Counted from the stretch's first letter, positions 5,010 to 61,519 are shown. The stretch is DNA of 64,000 nucleotides from Tepidiformaceae bacterium (GCA_965214395.1 CBDCBZ010000001.1:152171-216170); one strand, 5' to 3'. A program made the numbers and translations. The notes: generated by a model not told the origin, from the letters alone.

Positions 5010-6218
5010 TCAGAAGCGCAGGGGGAGCTGTCCCCACGAACGGAAGTGCTTGCTCAGGAAGCGCCACTGGCGCTCGTCGCCGTAGTGGGAACCGGAGTCG
5101 CGGCCGTAGAGGCGGTCGGGCGGCCCGGCCAGCTTCTGGTAGCGGAAGCGGGCCACTTCCTGACCGTCTTCGAGCATGAATGGCACGTCGTGGGCGCGCA
5201 CTTCGAGGACGGCAGGGAGGCCGTCGGGGACGCTGGCGCCAAAGCCGGGGTCGAAGAAGCCGGCGTAGTGCGTGCGAAGCTCGCCGCTGGTGGGGTCGAA
5301 GGGGACCATCTCGGCGGCCAGCTCGGCGGGGATGGCGATCTGCTCCTGCGAGCGCAGGAGGTAGAACTCCTCCGGTTCGAGGACGAGCCGGTTCGCCGGC
5401 CAGATCGGCTCCCAGAACTCGCGGGGGTCGTGGTCCCGGTGCTCCAGGTCGAGGAGGGCGCTGTTGTTTCGCTTCGCCTTGAAGCCAACGGGCATGGGAC
5501 CGCCGTCGGGGTCCCCGGTGTCGGGCTCCTGGGGCGAGGGGCGGAGCTGGATGCGCACGGTCTCGGGAGCGGACGGGGGGAGGGCGGGGGGACCGTCGCC
5601 GCCGGTGGGGTCTTCGACGATGAAGCGGAGCTGGTTGAGGGCCATGCCCGCGTGCACCTTCACGAGGAAGGAGCGGGAGAACACCTCAAGCCAGAGAGCG
5701 CCCTCGTAGCCGGGGGCGATGTCGTCGAAGCGGTGGGAGTAGTCGGTGACGACGCGGGTGAAGATGTCGACGCGCCCCGTGGAGCTCTTGGGGTTGGTGA
5801 AGGCGCGGACGTTGGCGGGGAGGCGGAGGCCCTCCATGAGGGGGATGAGGTAGGGGCGGTTGGGCTCGAGGATGCCGCCGGAGCGGATGTCGATGCCCTT
5901 GTCGATCTGGAGATCGCCCAGGCGCTCGCGCACGGTCTGGTGGCTGGGCAGGAAGCTGGAGCCGATGCGGTAGGCAGTGGGGCCGAGGAGGAGGTCGAGG
6001 CTGGCGGGCTGGAAGCCGTCCTCGGGGATCTCGACGGCGGAGGTCGTGAGGATGCCGAGGCGTTCCGCCTCGCGCAGGGTCTGGCGGGGAACGACGCCGG
6101 GGGGCAGGTTCCAGGTCTCCGGCCAGACGGGCGTCGCAGGCGGCGGACACCAGGGAGCAGCGGCCTGCTCGCCCCCCATGTGGCCCGCTTCGCGGGAAAT
6201 GCCCACTACCTCAGACAT
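5010..6218 (-). CDS. 2'-deoxycytidine 5'-triphosphate deaminase (long DCD family)
   Basis: ~400 aa. The N-terminal GILT..IPEDGFQPASLDL..G..AYRI and the overall layout resemble the long DCD-type dCTP deaminase family. Start uncertain. Confidence 0.7.
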   Translation of the reverse strand: MSEVVGISREAGHMGGEQAAAPWCPPPATPVWPETWNLPPGVVPRQTLREAERLGILTTSAVEIPEDGFQPASLDLLLGPTAYRIGSSFLPSHQTVRERLGDLQIDKGIDIRSGGILEPNRPYLIPLMEGLRLPANVRAFTNPKSSTGRVDIFTRVVTDYSHRFDDIAPGYEGALWLEVFSRSFLVKVHAGMALNQLRFIVEDPTGGDGPPALPPSAPETVRIQLRPSPQEPDTGDPDGGPMPVGFKAKRNNSALLDLEHRDHDPREFWEPIWPANRLVLEPEEFYLLRSQEQIAIPAELAAEMVPFDPTSGELRTHYAGFFDPGFGASVPDGLPAVLEVRAHDVPFMLEDGQEVARFRYQKLAGPPDRLYGRDSGSHYGDERQWRFLSKHFRSWGQLPLRF

Positions 6219-6302
6219 GCCGGGCGAGTGTACTGGTGCGCCTCGCGATAACGGAGGCGGGAACGCAAAGGTTCCGGGCCCATCGCCGCCGACCCCGCGG
6301 GG

Positions 6303-6641
6303 TCAGCCTCCGGCGGCGGCGCGGCGCTCGCGGGCCTCGATCGAGTAGGGGAGCTCGTTCATGAATTCGAGCTCCTCCTCCTCGAGGCAGTCGCCGAGGC
6401 CCTTCGACCACTCGCTGAACTCCGGATCCTCACGCGCGAGGGCGAGGACGGAGCGAACGGCGTTGGCGTCGGGCATTTCCCAGAGGTCGTAGCAGCGGTT
6501 GAGGCGGCCGATGCTGTTCTGGTAGGCGCCGTGGAGGCGCCAGCCCTTCTTCTCGAGGACGGGCACAAGGTGCGACATGATCTCCTGGAATTCCTGGGTC
6601 TTCCCGTACTTGCACTCCAGACGAACGAGCAGGAAGGGCAT
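6303..6641 (-). CDS. NIPSNAP-domain protein
   Basis: 112 aa dimeric alpha-beta-barrel-like pattern (..YGKTQEFQEI..L..KGWRLHGAYQNSIGRLNRCYDLWEMPD..). GGAGG RBS. It lies 40 nt downstream of the SelW-like gene on the same strand. Confidence 0.6.
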   Translation of the reverse strand: MPFLLVRLECKYGKTQEFQEIMSHLVPVLEKKGWRLHGAYQNSIGRLNRCYDLWEMPDANAVRSVLALAREDPEFSEWSKGLGDCLEEEELEFMNELPYSIEARERRAAAGG

Positions 6642-6681
6642 TGCGACCTCCGGTCGGGCTTTGGCTGTTGGCTGTTGGTGG

Positions 6682-6933
6682 CTAGGAGAGGCGGTCGGCG
6701 ATGGCCTCCTGCAGCTCCTTCATCTCCGGGTAACGACCGGTCGCCTTCTTCGAGTAGACGAGGTCGCCATCGACCTGCACCTCGAAGGCGCCGCCCGCGC
6801 CGGGCACGAGGGTGAGGGAAGCGGTCTGGTCGGCGAACATGGCGAGAAGTTCCTGGGCCGTCCACGCGGCCCGTGCGGTGTAGTTTCAGGGGACGCAGTA
6901 TTCGATCGAGATGGCAAGGCTCTGCTGGACCAT
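6682..6933 (-). CDS. SelW/Rdx-family selenoprotein (CxxU) with in-frame TGA at 6886-6888
   Basis: ATG 6933 with a GGAGGA RBS. Reading TGA as Sec gives MVQQSLAISIEYCVP-U-NYTARAAWTAQELLAMFADQTASLTLVPGAGGAFEVQVDGDLVYSKKATGRYPEMKELQEAIADRLS, the full Rdx/SelW pattern (IEYCxxUNY..RA..EL..GG.FEV.VDG.L.YSKK..GR.PE). Stop TAG 6682-6684. The ORF track shows only the 15-aa tail of ORF 6886..7146. Confidence 0.8.
6855..6872 (-). promoter_or_regulatory. SECIS-like hairpin downstream of the SelW-like UGA
   Basis: On the minus strand, GGGCCG-CGUGGA-CGGCCC (6-bp GC stem, 6-nt loop containing GU) starts 13 nt after the UGA. This spacing is compatible with bacterial SECIS elements. Confidence 0.5.
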
Positions 6934-7005
6934 GGGGAGTTCCTCCAGATCGGGTCTGTTTGATGTGCAGTCAGTGTAGCGCCCCGAAGGGCTGGGGGCG
7001 GGCGC

Positions 7006-7011
7006 TATAAT
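7006..7011 (+). promoter_or_regulatory. candidate -10 box (TATAAT) in the divergent selenoprotein intergenic region
   Basis: Perfect TATAAT 35 nt upstream of ATG 7046. No convincing -35 was seen. Confidence 0.3.
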
Positions 7012-7045
7012 TCGGGCACGGCGGAACTCTGCCGGGAGGCGCCTC

Positions 7046-7564
7046 ATGGCAACGATCCTGGATCCCACGGACGAGCGCGTTCCGGTACGGCGCTCGCTGA
7101 CGCAGCGGCCGGAGGCGATCAGCGGCACGGTCGCGCTGCTGGACATCTCGAAGCCGCGCGGCGACGTGCTGCTCGATCAGCTCGAGGTGCGGCTGCGCGA
7201 GCGGCTTCCCGAGGTCGACGTGCTTCGCTACAGCAAGCCGACCTTCACCAAGCCCGCGCCGGAGGCGCTGCGGCAGGAGCTGGCCAAGGAGGCCGACTTC
7301 GTCGTCGAAGGGTTAGCCGACTGAGGGTCGTGTACGACGTGCAGTGTGCACGACACGACCTGGCTGGAAATCAACGGCATCCCCTCGGTCTTCATTGCTT
7401 CGGACGAGTTCGAAGAGGCGGCGGAAGCGCAGGCTGAGTCGCTCGGATTGCCGGAGGTGCAACGCCTGTTCGTGCCGCACCCCATCCAGGACGCGAACGA
7501 CGATGAGATGCGGTCGAAGGCGGATGCGATCGTGGACGACGTGATCGCGGCGTTGATCGACTAG
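7046..7564 (+). CDS. UGSC-motif selenoprotein with in-frame TGA at 7322-7324
   Basis: Track ORFs 7046..7324 and 7346..7564 are in the same frame and separated only by TGA plus 7 sense codons. The read-through gives ..FVVEGLAD-U-GSCTTCSVHDTTWLEINGIPSVFIASDEFEEAA.. (172 aa). GGGAGG RBS 7 nt before the ATG. Confidence 0.8.
7326..7360 (+). promoter_or_regulatory. SECIS-like extended hairpin immediately after the UGSC UGA
   Basis: GGTCGTGT (7326-7333) pairs perfectly with ACACGACC (7353-7360). An inner stem CGTGCA (7338-7343) pairs with TGCACG (7347-7352), loop GUG, with a 4-nt 5' bulge ACGA. That is 14 bp in total. Confidence 0.6.
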
Positions 7565-7617
7565 AAGCGGGAAACGCGGCGTTCCGCGCCTAGGACGCCG
7601 CGCGATACACTGGACCC

Positions 7618-10233
<2,616 letters not shown>

Positions 10234-18374: not shown

Positions 18375-19949
18375 ATGAACACGATCGAGTTCCTTCAGAT
18401 CTCCGCCGCCGTCGTGCCCGAACGGGAGGCGCTGGTGGAGGTGGGCGGGGCCGGCCGCCGCCTCAACTACGCCGAGATGCAGGAGCAGGTGACCCGCCTG
18501 GCGAACGCCATCCGGGGCCTGGGCGTGGAGCAGGGCCAGAAGGTCGCCGTGATGGCGCAGAACAGCGTGGACTTCGTGCTGACGTACTACGCCTGCGCGA
18601 TGCTGGGCGTAACCCTCGTCCCGCTGAACTACCGCTCGAAGGACGAAGAGCTGACGCACATGCTCAACGTGAGCCAGGCGGAGGTGCTGTTCGTCTCGGA
18701 GCGCTACCTGGAGCTGGTCAATCGCATCCGGCCAGGGCTGACCCACACGAAGACGTTCGTGAGCTACGACGGACCGGCTGAGGGCTACCGCGACTTCGCC
18801 GGCCTGGTGGCGGGGGCAGTGGCGGAGGACATCTGGGTAGAGGTGGACGACGAGCAGCCCACGGTCCTCATCTTCACGAGCGGCACGACGGCGCTACCGA
18901 AGGGCGTGATGATTACGTTCCTCGACATGACCGCCTACGTCACGAACACGATGAACCCGGCCGACCCGGACGTACACGACAAGACGGTGGTCTCGGTGCC
19001 GTTCTTCCACATCGCGGGGGCGACGGCGATGCTCTCCTCAATCTGGGGTGGGCGCACGCTGCTGGTGCTGCCGCAGTTCACGCCGGAGGGCTGGCTGTCG
19101 GCGGTGGGCGACGAGGGTGCGACGCACTCGATGGTCGTGCCGACGATGCTGAAGCGCATCATGGAGCACGAGGCGCTGGAGAAGACGAGCCTCGACACCC
19201 TGCAGCTCATTACCTACGGGGCGGCGCCGATGCCGTACGAGGTGGTGCGCAAGGCATGCGACATCTTCCCGCAGCAGGGCGTAGGCCTGATGAACGCCTA
19301 CGGACAGACGGAATCGACCTCCACGCTGACCTACCTGGGCCCCGACGACCACGACCTGAGCGTCGACATGGACGTGCGGGAGGCGCGCCTGCGCTCGGTG
19401 GGCCGGCCCATGGACGATGTCGAGATCGGCATCATGGACGACCGCAACGTGCTGCTCGAGCCGGGCGACGAGGGCGAGATTTGCGTCCGCTCCGACCGCG
19501 TGATGAAGGGCTACTACGAGCAGGAGGACGCCACCAGCACAGCGATCATCGACGGCTGGCTGCACACCGGCGACGTGGGCCGCGTGGACGAAGGCGGCTA
19601 CCTGTTCATCACCGGGCGGAAGAAGGACCTCATCATCCGCGGCGGCGAGAACATCTCGTCGGGCGAGGTGGAGAACTGCCTCGAGGACCATGAGGGCATC
19701 GACGAAGCCGCCGTCATCGGCGTCCCGGACGTGGACTGGGGCGAGGTGGTGAAGGCGGTGCTTGTACCGAAGCCGGGAGCCACGCTCACGCCGGAGGACG
19801 TGAACGCCTACTGCAAGAGCCGGATCGCGTCATTCAAGGCGCCGCAGTACATCGCGGTGGTGGACGAGCTGCCGCGCAACGCCATGGGCAAGGTGCTCAA
19901 GAACGACCTTCGCAAGCTGTACGGCTCGCCCACGAACGACAACGCATGA
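18375..19949 (+). CDS. AMP-dependent acyl-CoA synthetase/ligase
   Basis: AMP-binding motif IFTSGTTALPKGV, then YGQTE and GWLHTGDVG..DEGGYLFITGRKKDLI. GGAGGGAG RBS before ATG 18375. Confidence 0.9.
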   Translation: MNTIEFLQISAAVVPEREALVEVGGAGRRLNYAEMQEQVTRLANAIRGLGVEQGQKVAVMAQNSVDFVLTYYACAMLGVTLVPLNYRSKDEELTHMLNVSQAEVLFVSERYLELVNRIRPGLTHTKTFVSYDGPAEGYRDFAGLVAGAVAEDIWVEVDDEQPTVLIFTSGTTALPKGVMITFLDMTAYVTNTMNPADPDVHDKTVVSVPFFHIAGATAMLSSIWGGRTLLVLPQFTPEGWLSAVGDEGATHSMVVPTMLKRIMEHEALEKTSLDTLQLITYGAAPMPYEVVRKACDIFPQQGVGLMNAYGQTESTSTLTYLGPDDHDLSVDMDVREARLRSVGRPMDDVEIGIMDDRNVLLEPGDEGEICVRSDRVMKGYYEQEDATSTAIIDGWLHTGDVGRVDEGGYLFITGRKKDLIIRGGENISSGEVENCLEDHEGIDEAAVIGVPDVDWGEVVKAVLVPKPGATLTPEDVNAYCKSRIASFKAPQYIAVVDELPRNAMGKVLKNDLRKLYGSPTNDNA

Positions 19950-22210
19950 GCGCGCAGCCAGCCTCCCCGGAGAAGCCACCAGCCGTGACGGACACGCCTC
20001 AGAAGAAGGGCTCGCGCTTCAATGTGAGCGTCCTGGGCATCGCTGTGCCCGTGGCGGTGATCGCCGCCATCGGCGCGCTGGAGACGGCGCAGACGGAGCG
20101 CGCCAGCCGCGAGGTGTTCTTCAACATCCAGGGCTTCGCCGTGATGTACTTCATCTTCGGCATCGCCGTGGCCGTGATCGTGGGGGCGTTCGTGCAGCGC
20201 CTGCGGGTGTGGCGGCTGGGACGCAGCCACAACGTCTTCAACGACCTGGGGGCGCGGCTCACGAACGCGCTCACGCTGGGAGCGGGCACGGGCCGCGTCA
20301 CGAACGACCGCTACGCGGGCGTGATGCACTGGTGCATCTACTCGAGCTTCGCGGTCCTGACGCTGGTGACGATCCTGCTGGCGATCGACGACTACTTCGA
20401 CCTGATCTTCCAGGTCGGCAGCGAGCACGCCTTCCTCGAAGGAGGCGTCTACCTGGCCTACAGCTTCGTGGGCGACCTGTTCGGGATCATCGGCCTGGTG
20501 GGCATCGGCATGGCGGTGTTCCGCCGCTTCGGCCCGGCGCCGGCGAAGCTGACCTGGGACCGGCGGCAGTCGGAAGACGCGATCGTCGTCGGGCTGCTGG
20601 GGTTCGTGCTGTTCACGGGCTTCCTCGTCGAGGGGCTGCGCATTGGCGGACACGAGATTCCGCTGGGGAACGAGAACTGGTCGTACTGGTCGCCGGGCGG
20701 CTGGGTGATCGCGAAGATCGTGGGCGGGGCGAGCGTGAGCGCGCTGCTGACCGCGCACCAGGTCTTCTGGTGGATCCACGTGGTGGGCGCCTTCAGCCTG
20801 CTGACGCTGATGGCCCTGACGAAGTTCCGGCACATCATCTTCGCGCCCGTTAACGCGTTCCTGAAGCGGCCGGCGGTTCCCTCGTACCTGGCGCCGATGG
20901 GCGACTTCGAGCAACTCATCGAGGAAGGCGCGAGCCTCGGCGCGGGCAAGGTCCAGGACCTCTCCTGGAAGCAGCTCTTCGACGCCGACACGTGCGTGCG
21001 CTGCGGGCGCTGCACGGATGCCTGTCCGGCCTACACGGCGGGCCAGCCGCTCTCGCCCATGGCGATCATCCAGGATCTGAAGTCGTACATGAACCACGCC
21101 GGACCGCTCCTGATCGCGGGGAAGGACCCGGCCGAGAAGGTCGACGGGGAGCTGGTGGGCGACTACGTCAAGGACGAGTCGCTGTGGGCCTGCCGCACGT
21201 GCATGGCGTGCGTGCAGGAGTGCCCCGTGCTGATCGAGCACGTGCCCACGATTGTCGACATGCGTCGCTACCTGGTGATGGAGCAGGCGCGCATCCCGGG
21301 GACGGCGCAGGAGACGCTGCAGAACATCGAGCAGCGCGGCCATCCCTGGCGGGGCACGCAGCTCACTCGCGAGACGTGGATGGAGCAGCTCCGCGAGGAG
21401 GGCATCGATGTGCCCATCTTCGACGGGTCGCAGGAGTACCTGTACTGGGTGGGCTGCTCGGGGGCGCTGGTGGAGCGCAACATGCCCATCACGAAGTCGG
21501 TGGTGCGGCTGCTGATCGAGGCGGGCGTGAGCTTCGGCGTGCTGGGACAGCAGGAGACGTGTACGGGCGACCCCGCCCGGCGGCTCGGCAGCGAGTTCCT
21601 CTACGCGACACTGGCGGAGACGAACGTCGCCTCGATGAACGAGATCGGCGTGCGGCGCGTGATCACGGCCTGCCCGCACTGCTTCAACACCTTCAAGAAC
21701 GAGTACCCGGACTTCGACGGGCAGTGGGAGGTCACGCATCACGCGGAGTTCCTCCAGCTGCTGCTGGCGCAGGGCAAGCTGCAGCCGAAAAAGATGGACG
21801 GGCAGACGATTACCTACCACGACTCGTGCTACCTGGGGCGAGGCAACGGCATCATGGACGCACCTCGCGACGTGCTGGAACAGATTCCGGGCGCCGAGCT
21901 GGTGGAGATGCCGCGCAGCCGCGAGCAGGGCATGTGCTGCGGCGCCGGCGGCGGCAACATGTGGATGGAGGAGTCGGGCACGCGCGTGAACCACCTGCGC
22001 ACGGCGGAGGCGGCGAACACGGGTGCGAGCATCGTGGCGACGGCCTGCCCGTTCTGCATCCAGATGTTCGAGGACGGCATTCCCGCGGTGCAGCCGGACG
22101 AGGATGCACGCTCGATCCAGGCGTTCGACATCGCGGAGCTGCTCGAAGTGAGCGTGGCGCCGCCGCGCCCGGCGGGCGAGGGCGCGATTCCCCCGGGGGT
22201 CACGGGCTAG
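19946..22210 (+). CDS. membrane-anchored (Fe-S)-binding oxidoreductase, HdrD/DsrK/EtfD-like
   Basis: N-terminal ~300 aa with multiple TM helices bearing conserved His. Two 4Fe-4S ferredoxin motifs (CVRCGRCTDACP, CRTCMACVQECP) and two CCG-type Cys-rich repeats (VGCSG..CPHCFNTF; YHDSCYLGR..MCCGAGGG..CPFCIQM) follow. ATGA overlap with the acyl-CoA synthetase stop. Confidence 0.8.
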   Translation: MSAQPASPEKPPAVTDTPQKKGSRFNVSVLGIAVPVAVIAAIGALETAQTERASREVFFNIQGFAVMYFIFGIAVAVIVGAFVQRLRVWRLGRSHNVFNDLGARLTNALTLGAGTGRVTNDRYAGVMHWCIYSSFAVLTLVTILLAIDDYFDLIFQVGSEHAFLEGGVYLAYSFVGDLFGIIGLVGIGMAVFRRFGPAPAKLTWDRRQSEDAIVVGLLGFVLFTGFLVEGLRIGGHEIPLGNENWSYWSPGGWVIAKIVGGASVSALLTAHQVFWWIHVVGAFSLLTLMALTKFRHIIFAPVNAFLKRPAVPSYLAPMGDFEQLIEEGASLGAGKVQDLSWKQLFDADTCVRCGRCTDACPAYTAGQPLSPMAIIQDLKSYMNHAGPLLIAGKDPAEKVDGELVGDYVKDESLWACRTCMACVQECPVLIEHVPTIVDMRRYLVMEQARIPGTAQETLQNIEQRGHPWRGTQLTRETWMEQLREEGIDVPIFDGSQEYLYWVGCSGALVERNMPITKSVVRLLIEAGVSFGVLGQQETCTGDPARRLGSEFLYATLAETNVASMNEIGVRRVITACPHCFNTFKNEYPDFDGQWEVTHHAEFLQLLLAQGKLQPKKMDGQTITYHDSCYLGRGNGIMDAPRDVLEQIPGAELVEMPRSREQGMCCGAGGGNMWMEESGTRVNHLRTAEAANTGASIVATACPFCIQMFEDGIPAVQPDEDARSIQAFDIAELLEVSVAPPRPAGEGAIPPGVTG

Positions 22211-31659: not shown

Positions 31660-31721
31660 ACCGGCTCCCTTCTTCCATCCTTGACAGTGGGGGAAGGGGA
31701 GCCATACACTCGCGACGGCTT

Positions 31722-31890
31722 TTTTCGTCCGGGTGCCCGTCCCAGGGAGAATAGGGAAGGCGGTGAGAATCCGCCGCGGTAGCGCCACTGTAATCGGGAA
31801 GACGGAGCCGAAGCCCACTGTCGGCAAGCCGATGGGAAGGGCCCGGCACTAACCAACCCGTAAGCCAGGAGACCTGCCTGGACGAGAGGT
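31722..31890 (+). promoter_or_regulatory. cobalamin (AdoCbl) riboswitch aptamer
   Basis: Core elements appear in the right order: AAUAGGGAA-GGCGGUGAGAAUCCGCC-GCGGUAGCGCCACUGUAA, and the B12 box AAGCCAGGAGACCUGCC at 31862-31878. It lies upstream of the btuC-like permease. Confidence 0.9.
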
Positions 31891-31958
31891 GTCACTTCTC
31901 CGCTATAGAGAGGTGCCCTCGATCTCCGGGCACCGATCCGGGCAGGTCGAACAAGGTA

Positions 31959-31988
31959 CCCCCAGCGGAGACGCTGGGGGTTTCTGTT
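31959..31988 (+). terminator. intrinsic terminator (riboswitch expression platform)
   Basis: CCCCCAGCG-GAGA-CGCUGGGGG (9-bp stem, 4-nt loop) followed by UUUCUGUU, between the aptamer and ATG 32029. Confidence 0.8.
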
Positions 31989-32028
31989 GCAGGCGGTCGG
32001 ACTCGCGACACTGCGCGGCTATCGGCGG

Positions 32029-33063
32029 ATGGGCATCGGCGCCCGCCTGGCGATCGGCGGGACGGTCCTGCTGGCGCTCGTGCTGGTCGTCGGCCTGGTC
32101 TCGCTGAGCCTCGGTCCGGTCGATATCTCCGCCGGCGACGTGGCCTGGATCGTGCTCTCCGCCATCGGGTTGGACACACCCGAGTTCGGGCGCACGGAAC
32201 AGCTCGTGATCGAGCAGATCCGGCTGCCGCGGATCATCGTGGGCGCCTCGGTGGGGATGGCGCTGGGGGTGGCGGGGGCGACGATGCAGGGGCTGTTCCG
32301 CAACCCAATGGCCGACCCCGGCATCATCGGGGTGTCGGCGGGAGGGGCGCTGGGGGCGGTGGTGGCGATTGCGGCGGGCCTGACGGGGCTGTTCTTCCTA
32401 GCGCTCCCGGTCTTCGCCTTCGCGGGGGCGATCGCGGCGGCGTTCCTCGTGTACGGCATCGCCGTGGCCGGGGGGCACTTCTCGATGGCGACCCTGCTGC
32501 TGGCGGGCGTCGCCGTGAATGCGTTCCTGGGGGCGATCGTCTCCGCGATCATCATCTTCCTGCCCGACAACGAGGCGCTTCGGGAGATCCTGTTCTGGCT
32601 CGCGGGCGGGCTGGACGCGCGCGCCTGGGAGCACGTCCGCATCGCCACGCCCCTGATCCTGGGGAGCACCGCCCTGCTCCTGATCATGTCGCGCGACCTG
32701 AACCTGCTGATGCTGGGCGACGACGAAGCGCGCTCGATGGGCGTGCGCGTCGGCGTGACGCGCGTGGCCCTGCTTGCGATCGCGGCGCTGGCCACGGGCG
32801 CGGCCGTCGCCGTGAGCGGGACCATCGCCTTCGTCGGCCTGGTGACGCCGCACGTGCTGCGGCTCCTGATGGGCCCCGACAACCGCGTGCTCATCCCGAT
32901 GAGCGCCCTGGGGGGCGCCGTCTTCGTGATGGTGGCGGACACCGTCGCGCGGATGGTCATCGAGCCGGCCGAACTGCGGGTCGGGATTCTCACGGCGTTC
33001 GTGGGAGCGCCGTTCTTCATCGCCCTTCTCATCACGAACAAACGGCAGGTCTACGCGCTATGA
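32029..33063 (+). CDS. btuC: FecCD/BtuC-type ABC permease (cobalamin/corrinoid uptake)
   Basis: Polytopic FecCD-family sequence (..RLPRIIVGASVGMALGVAGATMQGLFRNPMADPGIIGVS..). ATG 32029 was preferred because TTG 31987 lies inside the terminator U-tract. Confidence 0.85.
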   Translation: MGIGARLAIGGTVLLALVLVVGLVSLSLGPVDISAGDVAWIVLSAIGLDTPEFGRTEQLVIEQIRLPRIIVGASVGMALGVAGATMQGLFRNPMADPGIIGVSAGGALGAVVAIAAGLTGLFFLALPVFAFAGAIAAAFLVYGIAVAGGHFSMATLLLAGVAVNAFLGAIVSAIIIFLPDNEALREILFWLAGGLDARAWEHVRIATPLILGSTALLLIMSRDLNLLMLGDDEARSMGVRVGVTRVALLAIAALATGAAVAVSGTIAFVGLVTPHVLRLLMGPDNRVLIPMSALGGAVFVMVADTVARMVIEPAELRVGILTAFVGAPFFIALLITNKRQVYAL

Positions 33064-33090
33064 GCGTGGGCCTGCTGCAAAGGAGTCACC

Positions 33091-34275
33091 GTGTCCCTTA
33101 AGCCATTCCGTCTACTTGTTGTGCCGCTCGCCCTGCTGGTGCTGGGGCTAGCGCTGGCGGCCTGCTCCTCCGACGAGGAGTCGCCCGCGACGCCGGAGCC
33201 CACAGCAGCGGCGACGCCTGCTCCAACGGCGACCGCAACCGCTGAACCGACCGAGGCGCCAACGGAGACGCCGACGGAGGCAGCAACGGCGACGGCCGCT
33301 GCCACGGAGGCGGCCACGCCCCAGCCAACGCCGGAACCGACACCCGTGGCGCGGTCGCTCGAAGGCGTGAAGGGCATCGTCGACCATACGAACACGGGCT
33401 GGCCCCGCGAGGTCGAGGGCCTGAACGGGGTCGTCAGCATTCCCGCGAAGCCGGTGCGCATCATTACGGCCTCGGTGGGGCACGACGAGATGACGCTGGC
33501 GATCGTGCCGAGCGACAGGCTGGTGGCCATCGGCGGGGCGACGAAGAACGAGACCTACTCGAACGTGGCCCACCTGGTGCAGGAGAAGGCGGAGATCTCG
33601 CGGGACCCGGAGATCATCATCGCGCAGTCTCCAGATGTAGTCGTGACCAGCCCGTTCTTCCCAATCGAGGTGGTCGAGGCGCTCATACGAGCGGGCATCC
33701 CCGTCATCCAGACGGAACTGGAGCAGGGCCCGGAGTCGCGCATCGAAGCGATCCTGCTGATGGGGTACATCTACGGCGAGGAGGAACGCGCCTTCGAGTT
33801 CGCCGACGAGGTGCAAGCGCGCTACGAAGCCCTGGTGGACGTCACGGGCGTGAAGGAGCCCAAGCCGCGGGTGCTCGCCCTGACGCAGTACTCGGACACG
33901 CTCTGGGTCGCGGGCGGTCGTTCGACCGAGGGCGGCGTGATCACAGCGGCGGGCGGTCTCAACGCCGCCGAGGACGCGGGAATCACCGGGAACCAGACGA
34001 CAAGCCTCGAGGGGGTGATCGCAATGGCCCCGGACATCATCATCATTCCGCAGCCGGTTGCGTTCGGCGCAGAGGAGTTCCGGCAGAGCCTGCTGGAGCA
34101 CGAGGCGCTGGCCGAGCTGCCGGCGATCAAGAACGGCGCGGTCTTCGTCGTGGAGAGCAAGCACTTCACGACGCTGTCGTACTGGAACATTCGCGGAGCG
34201 GAGGACCTGGCGCGCATGCTGTGGCCGGACGACTTCCCCGATCCGCCGGCAGAATCCTTCAGCCTGGCCGAGTAG
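33091..34275 (+). CDS. ABC substrate-binding lipoprotein, BtuF/FhuD class (cluster A-II)
   Basis: Lipobox LALAACSS and a ~70-aa Thr/Pro/Ala/Glu tether, then a periplasmic-binding-protein type 2 fold (..PVRIITASVGHDEMTLAI..; ..PDIIIIPQP..). Confidence 0.8.
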   Translation: MSLKPFRLLVVPLALLVLGLALAACSSDEESPATPEPTAAATPAPTATATAEPTEAPTETPTEAATATAAATEAATPQPTPEPTPVARSLEGVKGIVDHTNTGWPREVEGLNGVVSIPAKPVRIITASVGHDEMTLAIVPSDRLVAIGGATKNETYSNVAHLVQEKAEISRDPEIIIAQSPDVVVTSPFFPIEVVEALIRAGIPVIQTELEQGPESRIEAILLMGYIYGEEERAFEFADEVQARYEALVDVTGVKEPKPRVLALTQYSDTLWVAGGRSTEGGVITAAGGLNAAEDAGITGNQTTSLEGVIAMAPDIIIIPQPVAFGAEEFRQSLLEHEALAELPAIKNGAVFVVESKHFTTLSYWNIRGAEDLARMLWPDDFPDPPAESFSLAE

Positions 34276-34283
34276 GTGGCGAT

Positions 34284-35183
34284 ATGAGCACGAACGGACA
34301 CACTCCCGCACCGGCATCGGTCGACGCGCAGGCCGTCTCCTTCAGCGTCGAGGCGAAAACGCTGCTGGACCGGGTCGACATGCGCGCGGAGCGGGGCCAG
34401 TTCGTCGGGCTGATCGGCCCGAACGGGGCGGGAAAGTCGACCCTGCTGCGGACGCTCTCCGGGGTGTTGCGGCACCAGCAGGGGGCAGTCTGGCTGGAGG
34501 GGTCGGACCTGGGGGCGATGCGTGCCAGGGACGTGGCCGCGATGCTCGCGCTGGTCCCGCAGATCGCGCCCTACACGCAGGGCTTCACGGCCTTCGAGCT
34601 CGTCCTGATGGGGCGCTATCCCCACCTGGGGCGGTTCGCGGTGGAGGGGCAGGCAGACGACCGTATCGCCCGCGATGCGATGCTCCTGACCGAGACCGAC
34701 CACTTCGCCCCGCGAACGCTGGACACGCTCTCGGGCGGGGAGCGCCAGCGGGTGTTCCTGGCGCGGGCGCTGGCGCAGCAGCCGCGCGTGCTGCTGCTCG
34801 ACGAACCCACCTCGAACCTCGACATCCTGCACCAGCTCACGATCCTCGGGCTGGTGCGGCAGCTGGTGGACAACGGCCTGACGGCAATCGCGGCCATCCA
34901 CGACCTGAATCTCGCGGCGCGTTACTGCGACCGGCTGGTGCTGCTGAGCAACGGCGGGGTGGTCACGGAGGGGGCGCCGGAGGAGGTGCTGACGCCGGAG
35001 ACGATCGAATCGGCGTTCGGGGTGCGTGCGGCCATCTACCGCGAGCCGGTGGCGGGCGCCCTCGCCATCAGCCTGATCGAGCCGGCAGCGGGGGCGGACG
35101 CCGTCGCGCATGCCGGCACCGAGGGCGATAACGGCCGGGCTCCCGCCGGCAAGAACGGTGTGGCCAGTGCCATCCCCCGATGA
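34284..35183 (+). CDS. ABC transporter ATP-binding protein (BtuD/FecE type)
   Basis: Walker [10 protein letters not shown], signature LSGGERQR and Walker [12 protein letters not shown] 34284. Confidence 0.9.
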
Positions 35184-35760
35184 CGCGGTAGACGCAGGCA
35201 CGGAGCTGGGGGACGCCCCCGCAACCGGGTCGCGACGCGTGCGACACGGCCTGGTCGTCGTCAACACGGGCGAGGGCAAGGGGAAGACGACGGCTGCGCT
35301 TGGCGTCCTGTTCCGGGCGTGGGGGCGGGACTATCGGGTGCGGATGTTCCAGTTCATCAAGCACTCGACCGCGCGCTTCGGGGAGCACCGGGCGGCGAAG
35401 AAGCTCGACATTCGAATCGAGGCGATGGGGGACGGCTTCACCTGGCTCTCGAAGGACATGGACCAGACGACGGCACTTGCCGTGGCCCAGTGGGAGCGCT
35501 GCAAGGAGGCGATCCTGGCGGGCGGCGAGGACATCATCATCCTCGACGAATTCACCTACGCCATGCACTACGGCTGGGTGGAAGTCGGTGACGTAGTCGA
35601 GACGCTGCGGCGGAGGCCGGAGGGGATGCACGTCATCATCACCGGCCGGTACGCGCCGGAGGAGTTGGTCGAGTTCGCGGACCTCGTGACAGAGATGAAG
35701 CTGATCAAGCACCCGTACGAGGAGCAGGGCATCGGTGCCCAGCCGGGGTTGGAGTACTAG
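35110..35760 (+). CDS. cobO: cob(I)yrinic acid a,c-diamide adenosyltransferase
   Basis: [34 protein letters not shown]....GE......ILDEFTYA...G......ITGR is the CobO/BtuR (CobA-type) pattern. Start uncertain (ATG 35110 or GTG 35158); it overlaps the ATPase 3' end. Confidence 0.85.
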
Positions 35761-35762
35761 CG

Positions 35763-36824
35763 ATGTCGGTGGCGGACGTGGTGGCGGGGATCGGACCGGC
35801 GGACCCGGTCGCGCGGGAGGCCGCACGGCTGCGACAGGCGCGCCTGACGAAGCCCCCGGGGAGCCTCGGGCGGCTGGAGGATCTGTCGTTAAAGGTAGCG
35901 GCGGTCCAGGGAACGGAGTGCCCGGTCGTACGGGGGAAGGCGGTCGTGGTGGCGGCGGCGGATCACGGGGTGGTGACCCAGGGCGTCACCGGGTATCCGC
36001 AGGAGGTCACCGCACAGATGGTGCTGAACTTCCTGGCAGGCGGGGCGGCCGTGAGCGTGATGGCCCGGCGCCAGAGCGTGCGGCTTGTGGTTGTCGATGC
36101 GGGGGTAGCCACGCCGCTGGCGCCGCACCCGGAGCTGCGCGCGCTGGGCATCGGGCGCGGCACGGCGGACATGACCCAGGGACCAGCGATGTCGCGGGAG
36201 CAGGCGGAGGCCTGCGTGCTGGCGGGCGTCGGGATTGCGCGCGAGCTCGCAGATGAAGGGGCGGAGGTCATCGGGACAGGGGACATGGGTATCGGGAACA
36301 CGACCGCGTCGAGCGCCATCACAGCGGCGCTCACGGGCAGGCCCGCTCGCCAGACGACCGGTCGGGGGACGGGCCGGAACGACGAGGAGCTGGAGCACAA
36401 GGTGGCGGTGGTGGAGCGGGCGCTGACGGTGAACCGGCCCGACGCGGGGGACGGTCTGGACGTACTCGCCAAGGTGGGTGGCTTCGAGATCGGCGTGCTG
36501 GCGGGGGTGGTGCTGGGCGGAGCGCTGACGCGCCGCGTAGTCGTGCTCGACGGGTTCATCTCGGGGGCGGCGGCGCTGGTCGCGCACAGCCTGTGCCCGA
36601 CCGTAGCCGACTACCTCGTGGCCTCGCACCTCTCTTCGGAGGCATGGCACGGGGTCGTGCTCTCGCACCTGGGGCTGCGGCCGCTGCTGGACCTGGGGAT
36701 GCGGCTGGGGGAGGGCACGGGAGCAGTGCTGGCCATGGGGCTGGTCGAGGCGGCGGCTTCGTGCCTGACGGAGATGGCGACGTTCGACGAGGCGGGGGTC
36801 TCCGGCGCGGATTCCGGGAACTGA
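35763..36824 (+). CDS. cobT: nicotinate-nucleotide--dimethylbenzimidazole phosphoribosyltransferase
   Basis: ..LTKPPGSLGRLEDL..., GDMGIGNTT and ..LDGFISGAAAL.. are canonical CobT motifs. Confidence 0.92.
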   Translation: MSVADVVAGIGPADPVAREAARLRQARLTKPPGSLGRLEDLSLKVAAVQGTECPVVRGKAVVVAAADHGVVTQGVTGYPQEVTAQMVLNFLAGGAAVSVMARRQSVRLVVVDAGVATPLAPHPELRALGIGRGTADMTQGPAMSREQAEACVLAGVGIARELADEGAEVIGTGDMGIGNTTASSAITAALTGRPARQTTGRGTGRNDEELEHKVAVVERALTVNRPDAGDGLDVLAKVGGFEIGVLAGVVLGGALTRRVVVLDGFISGAAALVAHSLCPTVADYLVASHLSSEAWHGVVLSHLGLRPLLDLGMRLGEGTGAVLAMGLVEAAASCLTEMATFDEAGVSGADSGN

Positions 36825-36834
36825 GGGGATCGCG

Positions 36835-37596
36835 GTGACGAGCCTGCGGCTGGCCATCGGCTTCCTCACGGTGCTTCCGGTGGCCCCGGGGGGAGAGGCG
36901 CGGATGGGTCCGGCGCGGGCGTGGTTCCCGCTGGTGGGGCTGGGGCTGGGAGGCATCCTGCTGGGGCTCGATGTGGCGGCGCGGGAGGGGCTGCCGGCGC
37001 TGGTGGTGGGGGCGATCCTCGTGGCGGCCCTGCTCGTGCTGACGCGGGCTATCCACACGGAGGGGTTCCTCGACTGCTGCGACGGGCTGTTCGGCGGGTA
37101 CACGCGCGAGGAGCGCCTGCGCATCCTGCGGGACACGCACGTGGGCGCATTCGCGGTCATCGGCGGGGCCGCCCTGCTGCTGCTGAAGTGGAGCGCGCTC
37201 GCCGGCATCCCGGACGAGGCTCGCACGGGACTGCTGGTGGTGTTTCCCTGCCTGTCGCGGTTCGGCATGGTCGCGACGATGGCGCTGTTCCCGTACGCGC
37301 GGGAGCAGGGGTTGGGCACATCGTTCCAGGAGGGGCGCAACTGGTGGCAGGTGGGGTTCGGTCTGGCTACGGCTGCCGTGGCGGCAGTGCTGTTCCTCGG
37401 GGGCGGGGGGGCGATCCTGGTGGGGGTCGTGGTCGTGGTGGCGCTGGGACTGGGGCGGTGGATGACGGGGATGCTGGGCGGGATGACGGGCGACACTTAC
37501 GGGGCGGTCAACGAGGTGGGGGAGGTGGCTGTGCTGGTGCTGGGCATCGCGCTGTTCTCGGCAATCCCGGAGATTTTCGGAGCGCCGCTCTGGTAG
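36835..37596 (+). CDS. cobS: adenosylcobinamide-GDP ribazoletransferase (cobalamin synthase)
   Basis: LAIGFLTVLPV.. N-terminus, polytopic, 253 aa, position in the cob operon. GTG start. Confidence 0.85.
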   Translation: MTSLRLAIGFLTVLPVAPGGEARMGPARAWFPLVGLGLGGILLGLDVAAREGLPALVVGAILVAALLVLTRAIHTEGFLDCCDGLFGGYTREERLRILRDTHVGAFAVIGGAALLLLKWSALAGIPDEARTGLLVVFPCLSRFGMVATMALFPYAREQGLGTSFQEGRNWWQVGFGLATAAVAAVLFLGGGGAILVGVVVVVALGLGRWMTGMLGGMTGDTYGAVNEVGEVAVLVLGIALFSAIPEIFGAPLW

Positions 37597-37620
37597 ACAC
37601 TGAGCCTTGAGGAGCACCAC

Positions 37621-38160
37621 GTGAGCAAGCGACTGACGCTGATCCTGGGAGGGGCGCGGGCGGGGAAGAGCACGTACGCGCAGCAGCTGGCAGCGAGCGG
37701 CGAGCGCGTCCTGTTCGTGGCGACGGCGGAGGCGGGCGACCGGGACATGGAGGCGCGCATCGCCGCGCATCGCGCGGGCCGTCCGGCGGCGTGGGACACG
37801 ATCGAGGAGCCTCTCGACCTCGTCGGGGCGCTGGCGCCGGTCGCAGACCGGTACGACACGGTTCTGCTGGACTGCCTGACCCTCTGGGTGAGCAACCTGC
37901 TGCTGCAGGGCTCGGAGGCCGAACCGGTCGACATCCCCAAGGAGGTGGGGCGGCTGCTGGCGGCGTACGAGGGGGGGTCTGCCTCCTGGATCGTCGTCAG
38001 CAACGAGGTGGGCCTGGGCGTGGTGCCTCCGACCGATCTGGGGCGCCGCTACGCGGACGAGCTCGGGCGGGCAAACCAGATCGTGGCGGCGGCGGCGGAC
38101 GACGTCTACTTCATGGCGGCGGGGCTGCCGCTCAACCTGAAGGCGCTGAGCCGGGAGTAG
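37621..38160 (+). CDS. cobU: bifunctional adenosylcobinamide kinase / adenosylcobinamide-phosphate guanylyltransferase
   Basis: P-loop LILGGARAGKS, ..ATAEA.D.EM..RI..H...R...W.T.E.. and ..LLDCLTLWVSN. 179 aa. GAGGAG RBS. Confidence 0.9.
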   Translation: MSKRLTLILGGARAGKSTYAQQLAASGERVLFVATAEAGDRDMEARIAAHRAGRPAAWDTIEEPLDLVGALAPVADRYDTVLLDCLTLWVSNLLLQGSEAEPVDIPKEVGRLLAAYEGGSASWIVVSNEVGLGVVPPTDLGRRYADELGRANQIVAAAADDVYFMAAGLPLNLKALSRE

Positions 38161-38169
38161 GCGCCGCCT

Positions 38170-39699
38170 TCAGCGGTCCAGCCCCATCACGCGGTACACG
38201 AGCTCCATGTCGAGGTTGTCGCGCACGAGCCCAGCGAGCTTGTCGTACTCGGCGTCGGGGTCGATGTCGTCGGTGGGAGGGGGCAGGGCGGCGCCCTTGC
38301 GGCTCGCGACGAACTCCAGGACGGCCCGGCGAACATCCCGGTTGTGGAACAGGCCGTGGAGGTAGGTCCCCAGCGTGAGCCCTTCCTCGTCGAGGGCGCC
38401 GTCGGGCGACTCCTCATTCCGGCCCGAGCGCGTGTCGATGAGGAAGGGCGAGGCCGCGTCATCGCGGGGCGAGACACCCATGTGAATCTCGTAGGCGGTG
38501 ATCTCAGCGCCGTAACAGCCGCTGAGGAGGCCGCGCCCCTCGGACACGCGACCCTTCGCCTGGTGGGTGACCTTCTCCCGCAGGAAGGTGGTGGAGGTCG
38601 GCAGGAGGCCGAGGCCCTCGGTGACATGTCGGCGTGACTCGACGCCGTCGGGGTCACGTAATTCCCGACCGAGCATCTGGTAGCCGGCGCAGATGCCGAC
38701 GATGGGAGTCCCTTCGCGACGCGCCTCGACCACGCGGCCGGCGAGGCCCTGGGCGCGGAGCCAGTCGAGGTCGTCGACGGTTGTCTTGCTACCGGGGATG
38801 ACGACCAGGTCGGGGGCGCCGAATGCCTCGGCGGAGGCGACGTAGCGAACGCGCACTCCGGGCTCGTGGCGAAGCGGGTCGAAGTCGTCAAAGTTGGCGA
38901 TGTGGGGGAGACGCAGGACGGCAACGTCGACGACCGTGTCGGCGTCGCTCGCAGCTCCGGGCTCGATACCGAGGGAGTCCTCCTCGGGGATGTGGATATC
39001 GAAGAACCAGGGCAGCACACCCGCCACGGGCACGCCCGTGCGTTCCTCCAGGAAGTCGAGTCCCGATGTCAGGAGGGAGGGATCGCCGCGGAACTTGTTG
39101 ATGACGTGGCCCTTCACCAGCGCCTGCTCCTCGGAGTCGAGCAGGACCATCGTGCCGACGAGCTGGGCGAAGACGCCGCCCCGGTCGATGTCGCCGACGA
39201 GCAGGACGGGGGCCTGGGCGTACAGGGCGACGCGCATGTTGACGATGTCGGATTGCTTCAGGTTGATCTCGGCGGGACTGCCGGCACCCTCGATGACGAC
39301 GACCTCGTACTCGGCGCGGAGGGAGTCGAGGGCGGCGGTCACCTCCTCCCAGATACCCGGCTTCATGTCGTGGTACTCGCGGGCGGAGCGGACGGCGCGG
39401 GGGCGGCCCATGACGACGACCTGCGAACGGGCCTCGGCCTCGGGCTTGAGCAGGACAGGGTTCATTTCGACCCGGGGCTCGACCATAGCGGCGGCGGCCT
39501 GGACCGCCTGGGAACGGCCAATCTCGCCGCCATCGGGCGTGACGTACGAGTTGAGGGACATGTTCTGGGCCTTGAAGGGAGCGACCTCGTAACCGTCCCG
39601 GGCGAAGATGCGGCAGAGGGCGGCAGTCAGGATCGACTTGCCCGCGTGGGAGGACGTGCCCTGGACCATGATGACCTTCGCCGGTTCGCGGCTACTCAC
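38170..39699 (-). CDS. cobQ: cobyric acid synthase
   Basis: VMVQGTSSHAGKS.. N-terminal ATPase domain and a C-terminal GATase (..GICAGYQMLG..) are typical of CobQ/CbiP. 509 aa. Confidence 0.92.
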   Translation of the reverse strand: MSSREPAKVIMVQGTSSHAGKSILTAALCRIFARDGYEVAPFKAQNMSLNSYVTPDGGEIGRSQAVQAAAAMVEPRVEMNPVLLKPEAEARSQVVVMGRPRAVRSAREYHDMKPGIWEEVTAALDSLRAEYEVVVIEGAGSPAEINLKQSDIVNMRVALYAQAPVLLVGDIDRGGVFAQLVGTMVLLDSEEQALVKGHVINKFRGDPSLLTSGLDFLEERTGVPVAGVLPWFFDIHIPEEDSLGIEPGAASDADTVVDVAVLRLPHIANFDDFDPLRHEPGVRVRYVASAEAFGAPDLVVIPGSKTTVDDLDWLRAQGLAGRVVEARREGTPIVGICAGYQMLGRELRDPDGVESRRHVTEGLGLLPTSTTFLREKVTHQAKGRVSEGRGLLSGCYGAEITAYEIHMGVSPRDDAASPFLIDTRSGRNEESPDGALDEEGLTLGTYLHGLFHNRDVRRAVLEFVASRKGAALPPPTDDIDPDAEYDKLAGLVRDNLDMELVYRVMGLDR

Positions 39700-40780
39700 C
39701 GGTCAGCACCTCGCGGAGCGCCTCGACGAGCCGGGCGCAGTCGGCGGACGTGCGGACGGCGATGCGGATGTGCTCGGGGAGGCCAAAGGAGGCGCAGTCC
39801 CGCACGGCGATGCCCCGGCGGAGGAGAGCGCCCCGTACGCTCGCGGCATCGCCGACCCTGACCAGCACGAAGTTAGCGGCGGATTCCGTGATGGACAGAT
39901 CGAGGGCGGCTAGATCGGCGCGGAGCCGCGCTTTCGCCTCGCGAATGACCGCCCGCGCGGCATCGACGTGTGCGTCGTCTTCCAGGGCCGCGAGGCCGGC
40001 GGCCTGCGCGGCGGCGTTCACGCTCCAGGCGTGCTGGAGCCCGCGGGCCCCCTCGACGACCTCTGGCTGGGCCGCCAGGTACCCCAGCCGGACTCCCGCG
40101 AGGGCATGGTCCTTGGTCATGGAGCGAATGATGGCAACGTTCCCCAGGCCCAGGAGGGGAGTCGAGTCCCAGGGGCAGTCGGCGAGGGGGGCGTAGGCGT
40201 CGTCCAGCACGAGCAGGCCGGGCTCGCCCACGGCGGCGGCCACGTGCTCCACGGCATCCCGGTCGAGGTAGACCCCCGTCGGGTTGTTCGGGTTGCAGAG
40301 GAAGACGACTGCGGGGCGCAGGTCGCGGATCGTGGCCGCCGCTTCGTCGATGGACCAGTGGAAATGCCGGGCTTCGCTTGCCGGGAGCTCGTGGACCACC
40401 GCACCGGCGGAAGTGGCGGCGGGTTCGTACTCGCCGAAGGTCGGGGTGAAGATGGCGCAGCGCTGGCCCGGCCGGAGGCGGGAGCGGGCCAGCAGATGGA
40501 TGAGCTCGGTGGAGCCGTTCCCGACGAGGATGCTGCCGGCCGCGACTCCGAGGCGGGTGGCGAGGGCTTCGCGCAGGGCCAGGCTGTCGCGGTCGGGGTA
40601 GGCAGACAGTTCCGCCTCCGAAACGGCTCGGCGGACGCGGGGAGACGGACCGAGGGGGTTGATGTTGGCGCTGAAGTCCAGCATCCCTCCCAGGCGCAGG
40701 CCGAGGGAGCGCAGCTCGGCTGCGTCGAGGCCGCCGTGAACCGTCCTTGCGCTCCCCATCACGACTCCATCAGGCCACAA
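39692..40780 (-). CDS. cobD: L-threonine-O-3-phosphate decarboxylase (class I/II aminotransferase fold)
   Basis: ..DFSANINPLGP..YPD...LR..LA....V....I..GNGS.E.I...., ..NPNNPTG.. and ..RSMTKDHALAGVRLGY.. It sits between cbiB and cobQ. Start uncertain (40780 or 40759). Confidence 0.8.
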   Translation of the reverse strand: MWPDGVVMGSARTVHGGLDAAELRSLGLRLGGMLDFSANINPLGPSPRVRRAVSEAELSAYPDRDSLALREALATRLGVAAGSILVGNGSTELIHLLARSRLRPGQRCAIFTPTFGEYEPAATSAGAVVHELPASEARHFHWSIDEAAATIRDLRPAVVFLCNPNNPTGVYLDRDAVEHVAAAVGEPGLLVLDDAYAPLADCPWDSTPLLGLGNVAIIRSMTKDHALAGVRLGYLAAQPEVVEGARGLQHAWSVNAAAQAAGLAALEDDAHVDAARAVIREAKARLRADLAALDLSITESAANFVLVRVGDAASVRGALLRRGIAVRDCASFGLPEHIRIAVRTSADCARLVEALREVLTGE

Positions 40781-49879: not shown

Positions 49880-50241
49880 CGCGGTCGCTCCGGGACCACC
49901 GGGGGCGCCAGGCGTCGCCAGTGAGCGCAACATCCGGCACCACTGTCCTCACGACTCCGTCGGGGGCTCTGGCTGAGGAGTATCCAACGTATGTGGAGTT
50001 CCTCCGCGCGACCGCCCGCGGTATCGCGGAGTGAGGCGGCGTGCTGGTGGGCCTAACTTGACGGTAGGCAGTACCACCTTCGAGGTGTTGTTCAGCCTGT
50101 AGCCGGGGCTCGAATGACGACGCGCCCACCGTCCTTGATTTCCACGTACAGGCTGTAGCCATCGAGCAGCCGCATGCCGACGAGCCCACAATCTCTCTAT
50201 CTCCGCCGGGCTGCACGGTTACAGGGAATCCTGGCCGGTGT

Positions 50242-60895: not shown

Positions 60896-60907
60896 GGAGA
60901 AGTAAAC

Positions 60908-60918
60908 GGGGGGGGGGG
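60908..60918. repeat. G11 (C11 on the coding strand) homopolymer at the 5' end of the giant gene
   Basis: agtaaacGGGGGGGGGGGtacg. It lies 13-23 nt upstream of ATG 60895, and inside the ORF (TPPP) if ATG 60925 or 60958 is used. Confidence 0.95.
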
Positions 60919-60997
60919 TACGCATCACACAATCCCCTTGGCAACCCAAGCCCGACATCTACCCCGCTCGCATCTACTATAGCGCAAACGCCCTTAC

Positions 60998-61404: not shown

Positions 61405-61519
61405 CCAGTCCGCGACATCCGCTCACTCCTTCGGCTCGTTGGTCTTCGAGAAGTCGTACGCGACGCGCTTGAGCGCCGCGAAGTGACCGGCGTGGCCGGG
61501 TACGATCTCGCGGGCCTGG

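Follow-up and report, generated by a model that had tools for sequence, protein, structure and literature searches.

We consider it highly probable that the minus strand of positions 6682-6933 in the DNA analysed here (a 64-kb stretch from a Tepidiformaceae bacterium, Chloroflexota, Dehalococcoidia; hereafter, the window) is a genuine selenocysteine (Sec)-encoding gene of the SelW-like (Rdx) family. In this work we describe its reading frame, its family, the conservation of its in-frame TGA codon, and the conservation and covariation of the hairpin that follows this codon. The gene comprises 83 codons and a TAG stop (6684-6682, minus strand), as delineated by translation, profile matches and comparison with 55 orthologues. 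Its frame opens at the ATG at 6933-6931, runs through MVQQSLAISIEYCVP to the TGA at 6888-6886, which is codon 16, and continues as NYTARAAWTAQELL...ADRLS. With the TGA translated as U, the product is MVQQSLAISIEYCVP-U-NYTARAAW...DRLS, a protein of 83 aa with the redox motif C13-V-P-U16, encoded by TGC (Cys13) GTC CCC TGA (Sec16) at 6886-6897 on the minus strand. A Shine-Dalgarno sequence, GGAGGA, can be read from the minus strand at 6941-6946, with a 7-nt spacer to the ATG. At this locus, the mechanical listing of ORFs yields no more than two pieces, one of 52 aa from the C-terminal part (6682-6840) and one upstream of it (6886-7146). The initial annotation of this DNA had claimed that a gene at 6682-6933, split by the TGA at 6886-6888, was hidden from the ORF track, that it possessed a strong ribosome-binding site and an ATG, and that reading the TGA as Sec would yield an 83-aa protein; its coordinates and sequence details were all correct, and our translation agrees with it.

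Relationship to known SelW-like proteins

In the profile searches with the SelW-like protein and with the UGSC protein discussed below, U was replaced by C in the query. The Pfam profile Rdx (PF10262) matches the SelW-like protein with an E-value of 1.1e-26 and a score of 93.2 bits (gathering score 22.6), the match spanning residues 8-80 of 83 and profile positions 2-74 of 74, and the NCBIfam profile TIGR02174 ("CXXU_selWTH") matches it over its full length with 73.1 bits, compared to a cut-off of 34.2. The score against the equivalog NF041051 (SelTWH_Campy) is just below the cut-off (82.4 vs. 88 bits), and therefore the protein belongs to a subgroup other than the Campylobacter-type one. Six solved structures of Rdx-family proteins, 2FA8 (Atu0228), 2OKA, 2OBK, 2OJL, 3DEX and 2P0G, match residues 6-82 with E-values from 1e-19 to 1e-14; this full-length homology indirectly supports the prediction that the SelW-like protein assumes a thioredoxin-like fold. 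In the alignment with 20 full-length homologues, U16 is placed opposite the second Cys of the CxxC motif (CVPC, CHPC, CTQC or CTVC). The complete Rdx/SelW pattern and the location of U at the second redox position of a CxxU motif, both proposed in the initial annotation, are thus supported by the Pfam and TIGR02174 scores and by the Cys-containing homologues, respectively.

The structurally characterized bacterial members of the Rdx family are Cys forms, whose CxxC motif aligns with the CxxU motif of the protein described here and which share with it the RAAW.AQELL helix. They differ from it at the second redox position, which is Cys instead of Sec, and most of them possess a C-terminal extension of approximately 20 residues, which is absent from the SelW-like protein of the window. 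Further counterparts are the prokaryotic SelW-like selenoproteins reported in the Sargasso Sea and GOS surveys (PMC1088965, PMC2398784) and also listed in PMC13188914, which are recognized by the same curated profiles, contain the CxxU motif, have a similar size (about 80-100 aa), and carry, as here, the SECIS element within the coding region, just 3' of the UGA. The published examples are marine, deltaproteobacterial and clostridial, whereas the host considered here belongs to the Tepidiformaceae (Chloroflexota). SelW-like proteins are among the commonest prokaryotic selenoprotein families and have been known since 2005, their Sec forms far exceeding the Cys forms in marine metagenomes (PMC2398784), and the gene described here is a further member of this known family; both the SelW-like and the UGSC families are represented by curated NCBI models. 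The mammalian selenoprotein W (SELENOW), for which an interaction with glutathione and a role in redox processes have been suggested (PMC1088965), can be likened to the protein of the window by its Pfam family and its CxxU motif. The recoding signals differ in position: in eukaryotes the SECIS, a kink-turn element read by SBP2/eEFSec, is located in the 3' UTR (PMC13188914), whereas the gene described here contains a short hairpin inside the ORF.

Conservation of the TGA codon and of the reading frame

When one genome of each GTDB species was scanned, 55 orthologous SelW-like loci were recovered, nearly all of them in Chloroflexota, with 47-96% identity to the window gene. The closest orthologues reside on Tepidiformaceae MAG chromosomes of 2.1-3.8 Mb, and the 96% identical one is found in OZ220695.1 (L002). 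The flanks and the identities of these loci differ, which excludes the possibility that they are copies of one contaminant. TGA occupies the U position in all 55 loci, of which about 51 have an uninterrupted frame to either side of it. The entropies at the three codon positions are 0.71/0.41/1.11 for the ten codons upstream of the TGA and 0.65/0.49/1.30 downstream; the codons on both sides evolve as coding sequence. About 54 of 56 loci have a Met residue 13-18 codons 5' of the Sec codon. Met32, at which gene callers place the start, is not conserved, and other orthologues exhibit T or K at this position (as in LLATFADQ, LLSTYADF and LLQTFADQ).

These data bear on two alternative explanations of the interrupted frame. 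The first is that a SelW-like gene of the CxxC type acquired the TGA from TGC or TGT, either by mutation or by a sequencing error, and is decaying. The splitting of the gene by ORF calling would agree with this explanation, and so would the frameshifts in four orthologues (L053-L056); however, all 55 independent assemblies, across the whole range of identities, carry TGA at this codon, about 51 of them with an intact frame, the variation on both sides of it is biased towards third positions, and a decaying gene would not retain an invariant hairpin with a compensatory change. Two of the outcomes that the initial annotation had named as evidence against its proposal, i.e. homologues terminating at this codon and a misread TGC or TGT, are therefore contradicted by the orthologues. 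In the second explanation, translation does stop at the TGA, the gene proper is the 52-aa ORF (6682-6840) that begins at Met32, and the upstream 15 codons are an untranslated leader. The databases indeed contain many calls of 51-52 aa, but many orthologues have Thr or Lys in place of Met32, the 52-aa piece is missing two elements found in the Rdx profile and in the solved structures (the first beta strand and the CxxC/U motif), and the codons 5' of the TGA vary in the manner of coding sequence. Taken together, the conserved TGA, the coding constraint on both its sides and the unconserved Met32 rule out a pseudogene as well as a read error or a gene of 52 aa: we regard decay or error as vanishingly improbable and the short gene as extremely unlikely.

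The four frameshifted loci (L053-L056) are distant orthologues in which the TGA is retained, together with the hairpin in whole or for the most part, and the frameshifts lie downstream. The frameshifts reflect either genuine decay or indels introduced by long-read assembly.

Because the Sec codon resembles a stop, gene finders shorten the SelW-like gene. Many database orthologues (P0008, P0014-P0016, P0019-P0022, P0025 and others) are fragments of 51-52 aa, P0038 has an N-terminus in the wrong frame, and two entries (P0001 and P0002) show W at the Sec position, in keeping with the expectation of the initial annotation that gene callers would miss the gene.

Sec versus a standard amino acid

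The presence of W in P0001 and P0002 raises the question of whether the UGA is read as a standard amino acid, either Trp or Gly by reassignment of the codon, or Cys or Trp by hairpin-stimulated near-cognate suppression. P0001 ends with "...ARAW" where the orthologue L022 has a TGA stop, and therefore its W is an artefact of a translation table in which TGA means Trp; such a table was evidently applied to ordinary-code Chloroflexota contigs in the calling of both entries. TGA terminates many ordinary genes of the window, including SecA, and hence the genetic code is standard. Moreover, the homologues display Cys at the position in question, and never Trp or Gly, and in this family, which is rich in Sec forms (PMC2398784), it is the position that Sec occupies. 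Decoding as a standard amino acid could also be argued from the results of our search for the Sec machinery in the window: ARAGORN and Rfam detected no tRNA-Sec in its 64 kb, the RNA content of which amounts to one tRNA (Leu) and one Rfam match (a cobalamin riboswitch), and the Pfam search of its 30 larger ORFs revealed no SelA, SelB or SelD domains. Likewise, ARAGORN found no tRNA-Sec in the loci L001-L056, and tblastn with the E. coli SelD and SelB as queries gave no match in the window or in the loci, which is a weak negative. Weighing both sides, we find it very unlikely that a standard amino acid is inserted.

For the decoding as Sec, we assume that the machinery is encoded elsewhere in this genome. 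This assumption is supported indirectly by a second gene with a Sec-type TGA in the window (see below) and by reports at the level of the phylum: Chloroflexi are recorded among the Sec-decoding phyla (PMC1794560), and a tRNA-Sec of the 8/4 form has been reported in them (PMC5389517). A window-wide screen for pairs of coding-like ORFs joined by a single in-frame TGA returned the two selenoprotein genes, ordinary gene boundaries, and one site at 61423, which is described at the end of this article.

The hairpin downstream of the Sec codon

The putative apical hairpin of the SECIS element was located at 6855-6872 (minus strand) by calculation of the minimum free energy (MFE) fold and by comparison of orthologues. 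It consists of a 6-bp stem, GGGCCG/CGGCCC, and a 6-nt loop, CGUGGA (6861-6866), starts 13 nt past the UGA, and overlies the codons R21-A-A-W-T-A-Q27. The structure GGGCCG/CGUGGA/CGGCCC is the MFE fold, with -12.9 kcal/mol, and the distance from the UGA to the loop is 19 nt. According to the published model of the bacterial SECIS (bSECIS), the loop has 3-9 nt, the stem 4-16 bp, the distance from the UGA is 16-37 nt, and the MFE is at most -7.5 kcal/mol, with a G among the first two positions of the loop, followed by G or U (PMC13188914). The hairpin described here agrees with all four constraints of this model (loop of 6 nt with G2-U, stem of 6 bp, 19 nt, -12.9 kcal/mol), and it was predicted correctly in the initial annotation, which had placed a GC hairpin with a GU-containing loop 13 nt past the UGA and had considered it to fit the spacing of bacterial SECIS elements.

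The fold of the single sequence is in itself no evidence for a SECIS: in this 68% GC DNA the stability of the hairpin does not exceed that of shuffled sequence (z from -0.8 to +0.2). Evidence of another type is provided by the 33 distinct aligned orthologue sequences that we used for the analysis of covariation. In these sequences 100% of the cells are paired, compared to 27-43% in controls with a slid partner, and the covariation score of the stem was reached by none of 500 shuffles. Two of the stem pairs link wobble positions of codons. The pair between the wobble positions of Arg21 and Ala26 (col18:col33) occurs as CG in 17 sequences, GC in 11, UA in 3 and AU in 2, and is broken in none of the 33, i.e. 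the two variable wobble sites of the stem change together and never singly. It is the one variable pair among the six, and the covariation derives from it alone; the pair types track clades and thus correspond to few independent compensatory changes. The entropy is zero at the remaining wobble sites of the hairpin (+21, +24 and +30) and in the loop, compared to 0.9-1.8 bits at the flanking wobble sites, and these positions of the hairpin are frozen also in the AT-richer lineages (L030, L038 and L047).

As a control we used the DNA of seven distinct Cys-form genes. None of the seven combines a perfect Watson-Crick stem with the CGUGGA loop, as compared to 53 of 53 intact Sec forms. The Cys-form genes have 4-6 of the 6 possible pairs because they retain the peptide RA(A/T/S)W(T/M/L/V)AQ, and the R-A-A-W-T-A peptide by itself encodes a partly self-complementary sequence. 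The synonymous sites of the hairpin are free in them: Thr ACC and Ala GCC are found in the loop, and the Arg and Ala wobble positions show mismatches.

It could thus be argued that the hairpin is a by-product of the peptide RAAWTAQ and of GC-rich codons, and that the insertion of Sec is determined in some other way. This argument can draw on the occurrence of the peptide in the Cys forms, several of which pair at 5-6 of 6 positions, on the insignificant z-scores of the single sequence, and on the presence of only one covarying pair. On the other hand, it does not account for the synonymous sites that are frozen in all Sec forms and free in the Cys forms, for the variable wobble sites that change only jointly in the 33 sequences, or for the apical stem at the same 13-nt offset in the unrelated UGSC gene (see below). 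Hence, we deem a by-product very improbable and conclude that the hairpin, including its one variable pair, appears to be maintained by selection, as judged from the alignment of the orthologues.

Some Cys-form homologues (L058-L062) show 6/6 pairing at the site that corresponds to the SECIS, with the G-U loop motif gone in L060-L062. This pairing could be a fossil SECIS, or it could be the outcome of the RAAW(T/L)A codons.

The minimal SECIS element of E. coli contains a bulged U and has an 11-nt offset. With respect to the bSECISearch model, for which E. coli fdhF is the archetype, the loop, the stem, the G-U feature, the spacing and the MFE of the hairpin described here are within the published ranges; with respect to the bacterial SECIS consensus, it has neither a supported lower stem nor a bulged U. 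In particular, RNAalifold predicted no lower stem of the SelW-like SECIS across the orthologues. Furthermore, the hairpin comprises only 18 nt, and its loop CGUGGA is invariant across the phylum, unlike the general consensus. The set of 55 genomes offers an unusually clean case of a minimal bacterial SECIS, of 18 nt, embedded in a conserved stretch that codes for a helix; this case could be used to train or test SECIS predictors.

The adjacent gene of the UGSC family

On the opposite strand, divergently from the SelW-like gene, positions 7046-7564 (plus strand) encode a second selenoprotein, of the UGSC family, with 172 codons and a Sec TGA at 7322-7324, as identified by translation and by the profiles PF24696 and NF041046. 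The frame around the TGA reads ...VVEGLAD-TGA-GSCTTC..., which places U in the UGSC motif from which the family takes its name. Over its full length, the protein scores 168.4 bits against NF041046 (UGSC_fam), above the cut-off of 125, and Pfam PF24696 matches its N-terminal part; we see no feature that distinguishes it from the known members of the family. UGSC-containing proteins are one of the top five selenoprotein families in GOS (255 vs. 21; PMC2398784). The TGA is kept in 22 of 22 neighbouring orthologues, and the public gene calls split the gene into pieces of 92 and 72 aa.

The predicted SECIS of the UGSC gene is a long hairpin directly 3' of the UGA (7325-7361, plus strand), with an MFE of -21.1 kcal/mol (z = -3.0; 1 of 200 shuffles was as good). 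Its apical stem, CGUGCA/UGCACG (7338-7343 / 7347-7352), starts 13 nt past the UGA and closes the loop GUG. The apical stem-loop is invariant in the 22 orthologues, and the lower stem shows uncompensated changes and no support from covariation in the same set. The presence of apical stems at the same 13-nt offset in both the SelW-like and the UGSC gene fits recognition by one SelB.

The two genes share an intergenic region of 112 bp (6934-7045), which presumably holds the promoters of both. A match to the sigma-70 consensus was not found in this region, and the scan of 6150-7650 for promoters and terminators gave no consensus sites. The same region contains a small hairpin, GCCC-UUCG-GGGC, on the minus strand at approximately 6988-6999. 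We found no mention of the divergent pairing of UGSC and SelW-like genes in the papers that we consulted.

Two adjacent selenoprotein genes of this lineage are thus systematically truncated or split in the public gene calls, which implies that the redox genes of Tepidiformaceae and other Chloroflexota, as well as their dependence on selenium, are under-counted.

Proposed mechanism and possible function

We propose the following scenario. Translation would start at the ATG at 6933, behind the GGAGGA ribosome-binding site, and would not terminate at the UGA of codon 16 (6886-6888), at which the hairpin at 6855-6872 would act as a bacterial SECIS. The hairpin would recruit SelB-GTP-Sec-tRNA(Sec), and Sec would be inserted at codon 16. 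The product would be a small protein of the thioredoxin fold, in which Cys13-Val-Pro-Sec16 may cycle between the selenol/thiol and the selenenylsulfide states. The CxxU motif in a family of the thioredoxin type points to a selenol/thiol oxidoreductase, and a thiol-selenol oxidoreductase of this kind would most likely serve in the defence against oxidative stress. The binding of SelB, the insertion of selenium, the redox chemistry and the physiological role are what we infer from the sequence comparisons, and in the case of the role, from the gene neighbourhood only.

The functions of prokaryotic SelW-like and UGSC proteins are stated to be unknown (PMC1088965, PMC13188914), that of the SelW-like proteins being presumed to be of a redox type. 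On the same strand as the SelW-like gene of the window, 40 nt to its 3' side, lies a gene with a NIPSNAP domain (6303-6641, minus strand; Pfam PF07978, E-value 2e-10) and its own GGAGG, which holds the same position in 19-20 Tepidiformaceae loci. A terminator-like site between the two genes was not found, and they are probably co-transcribed. The Tepidiformaceae have kept the order UGSC <-> SelW-like - NIPSNAP - dCTP deaminase - dihydrodipicolinate synthase (DHDPS), along with SecA. We considered the conservation of these neighbours as an argument for function and rejected it: SecA, DHDPS and dCTP deaminase are kept equally well, and therefore the neighbourhood in this family is probably plain synteny.

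More suggestive are the recurrent associations with redox enzymes in more distant Chloroflexota and, for the Cys forms, in other bacteria. A Ni-superoxide dismutase (Ni-SOD; PF09055, E-value 2e-43) together with its maturation peptidase, of the S26 type, adjoins the Sec-form gene in six loci (L027, L028, L031 and L033-L035), and Ni-SOD also adjoins the Cys-form gene in three independent contigs (L057, L063 and L067). A gene for a flavoprotein of the nitroreductase family lies directly 5' of the SelW-like gene in nine loci (L023-L026, L028, L029, L031, L033 and L043), and a glutathione peroxidase precedes the Devosia-type Cys form (L064-L066). In the 64-kb window we found no sodN, and our literature search yielded no report of a link between SelW-like proteins and Ni-SOD. 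That SelW-like proteins are dedicated partners of the machinery that detoxifies superoxide is a speculative extension of these observations, which we regard as rather doubtful. If the neighbourhood links are functional, they would offer a first tangible clue to the biochemical role of the SelW-like and UGSC families, whose members might then remove the peroxide produced by Ni-SOD or keep its Cys ligands reduced.

Other features of the window

The site at 61423-61425 (minus strand), returned by our screen, is an in-frame TGA that joins coding-like ORFs of 115 and 129 codons, with no Cys or redox motif nearby; it could represent the boundary of two adjacent genes or one disrupted gene. The cobalamin riboswitch mentioned above (31714-31895, plus strand; 110 bits) is followed by genes for a FecCD permease and a periplasmic binding protein, and genes of cobalamin salvage are located within 31909-41738 on both strands: a CobT-like DBI_PRT on the plus strand, and CobQ and CobD on the minus strand. 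An ORF of 1900 codons occupies 55259-60958 (minus strand). The gene at 19694-22210 (plus strand) encodes a protein of 838 aa in which a NarI-like membrane domain is fused to a 4Fe-4S dicluster domain and two CCG domains (HdrD / DsrK-like), and adjoins a gene for an AMP-binding acyl-CoA ligase. Finally, a protein of 655 aa encoded at 50068-52035 (plus strand) consists mostly of leucine-rich repeats (LRR_1, E-value 2.5e-55), a type of protein that is uncommon in bacteria.
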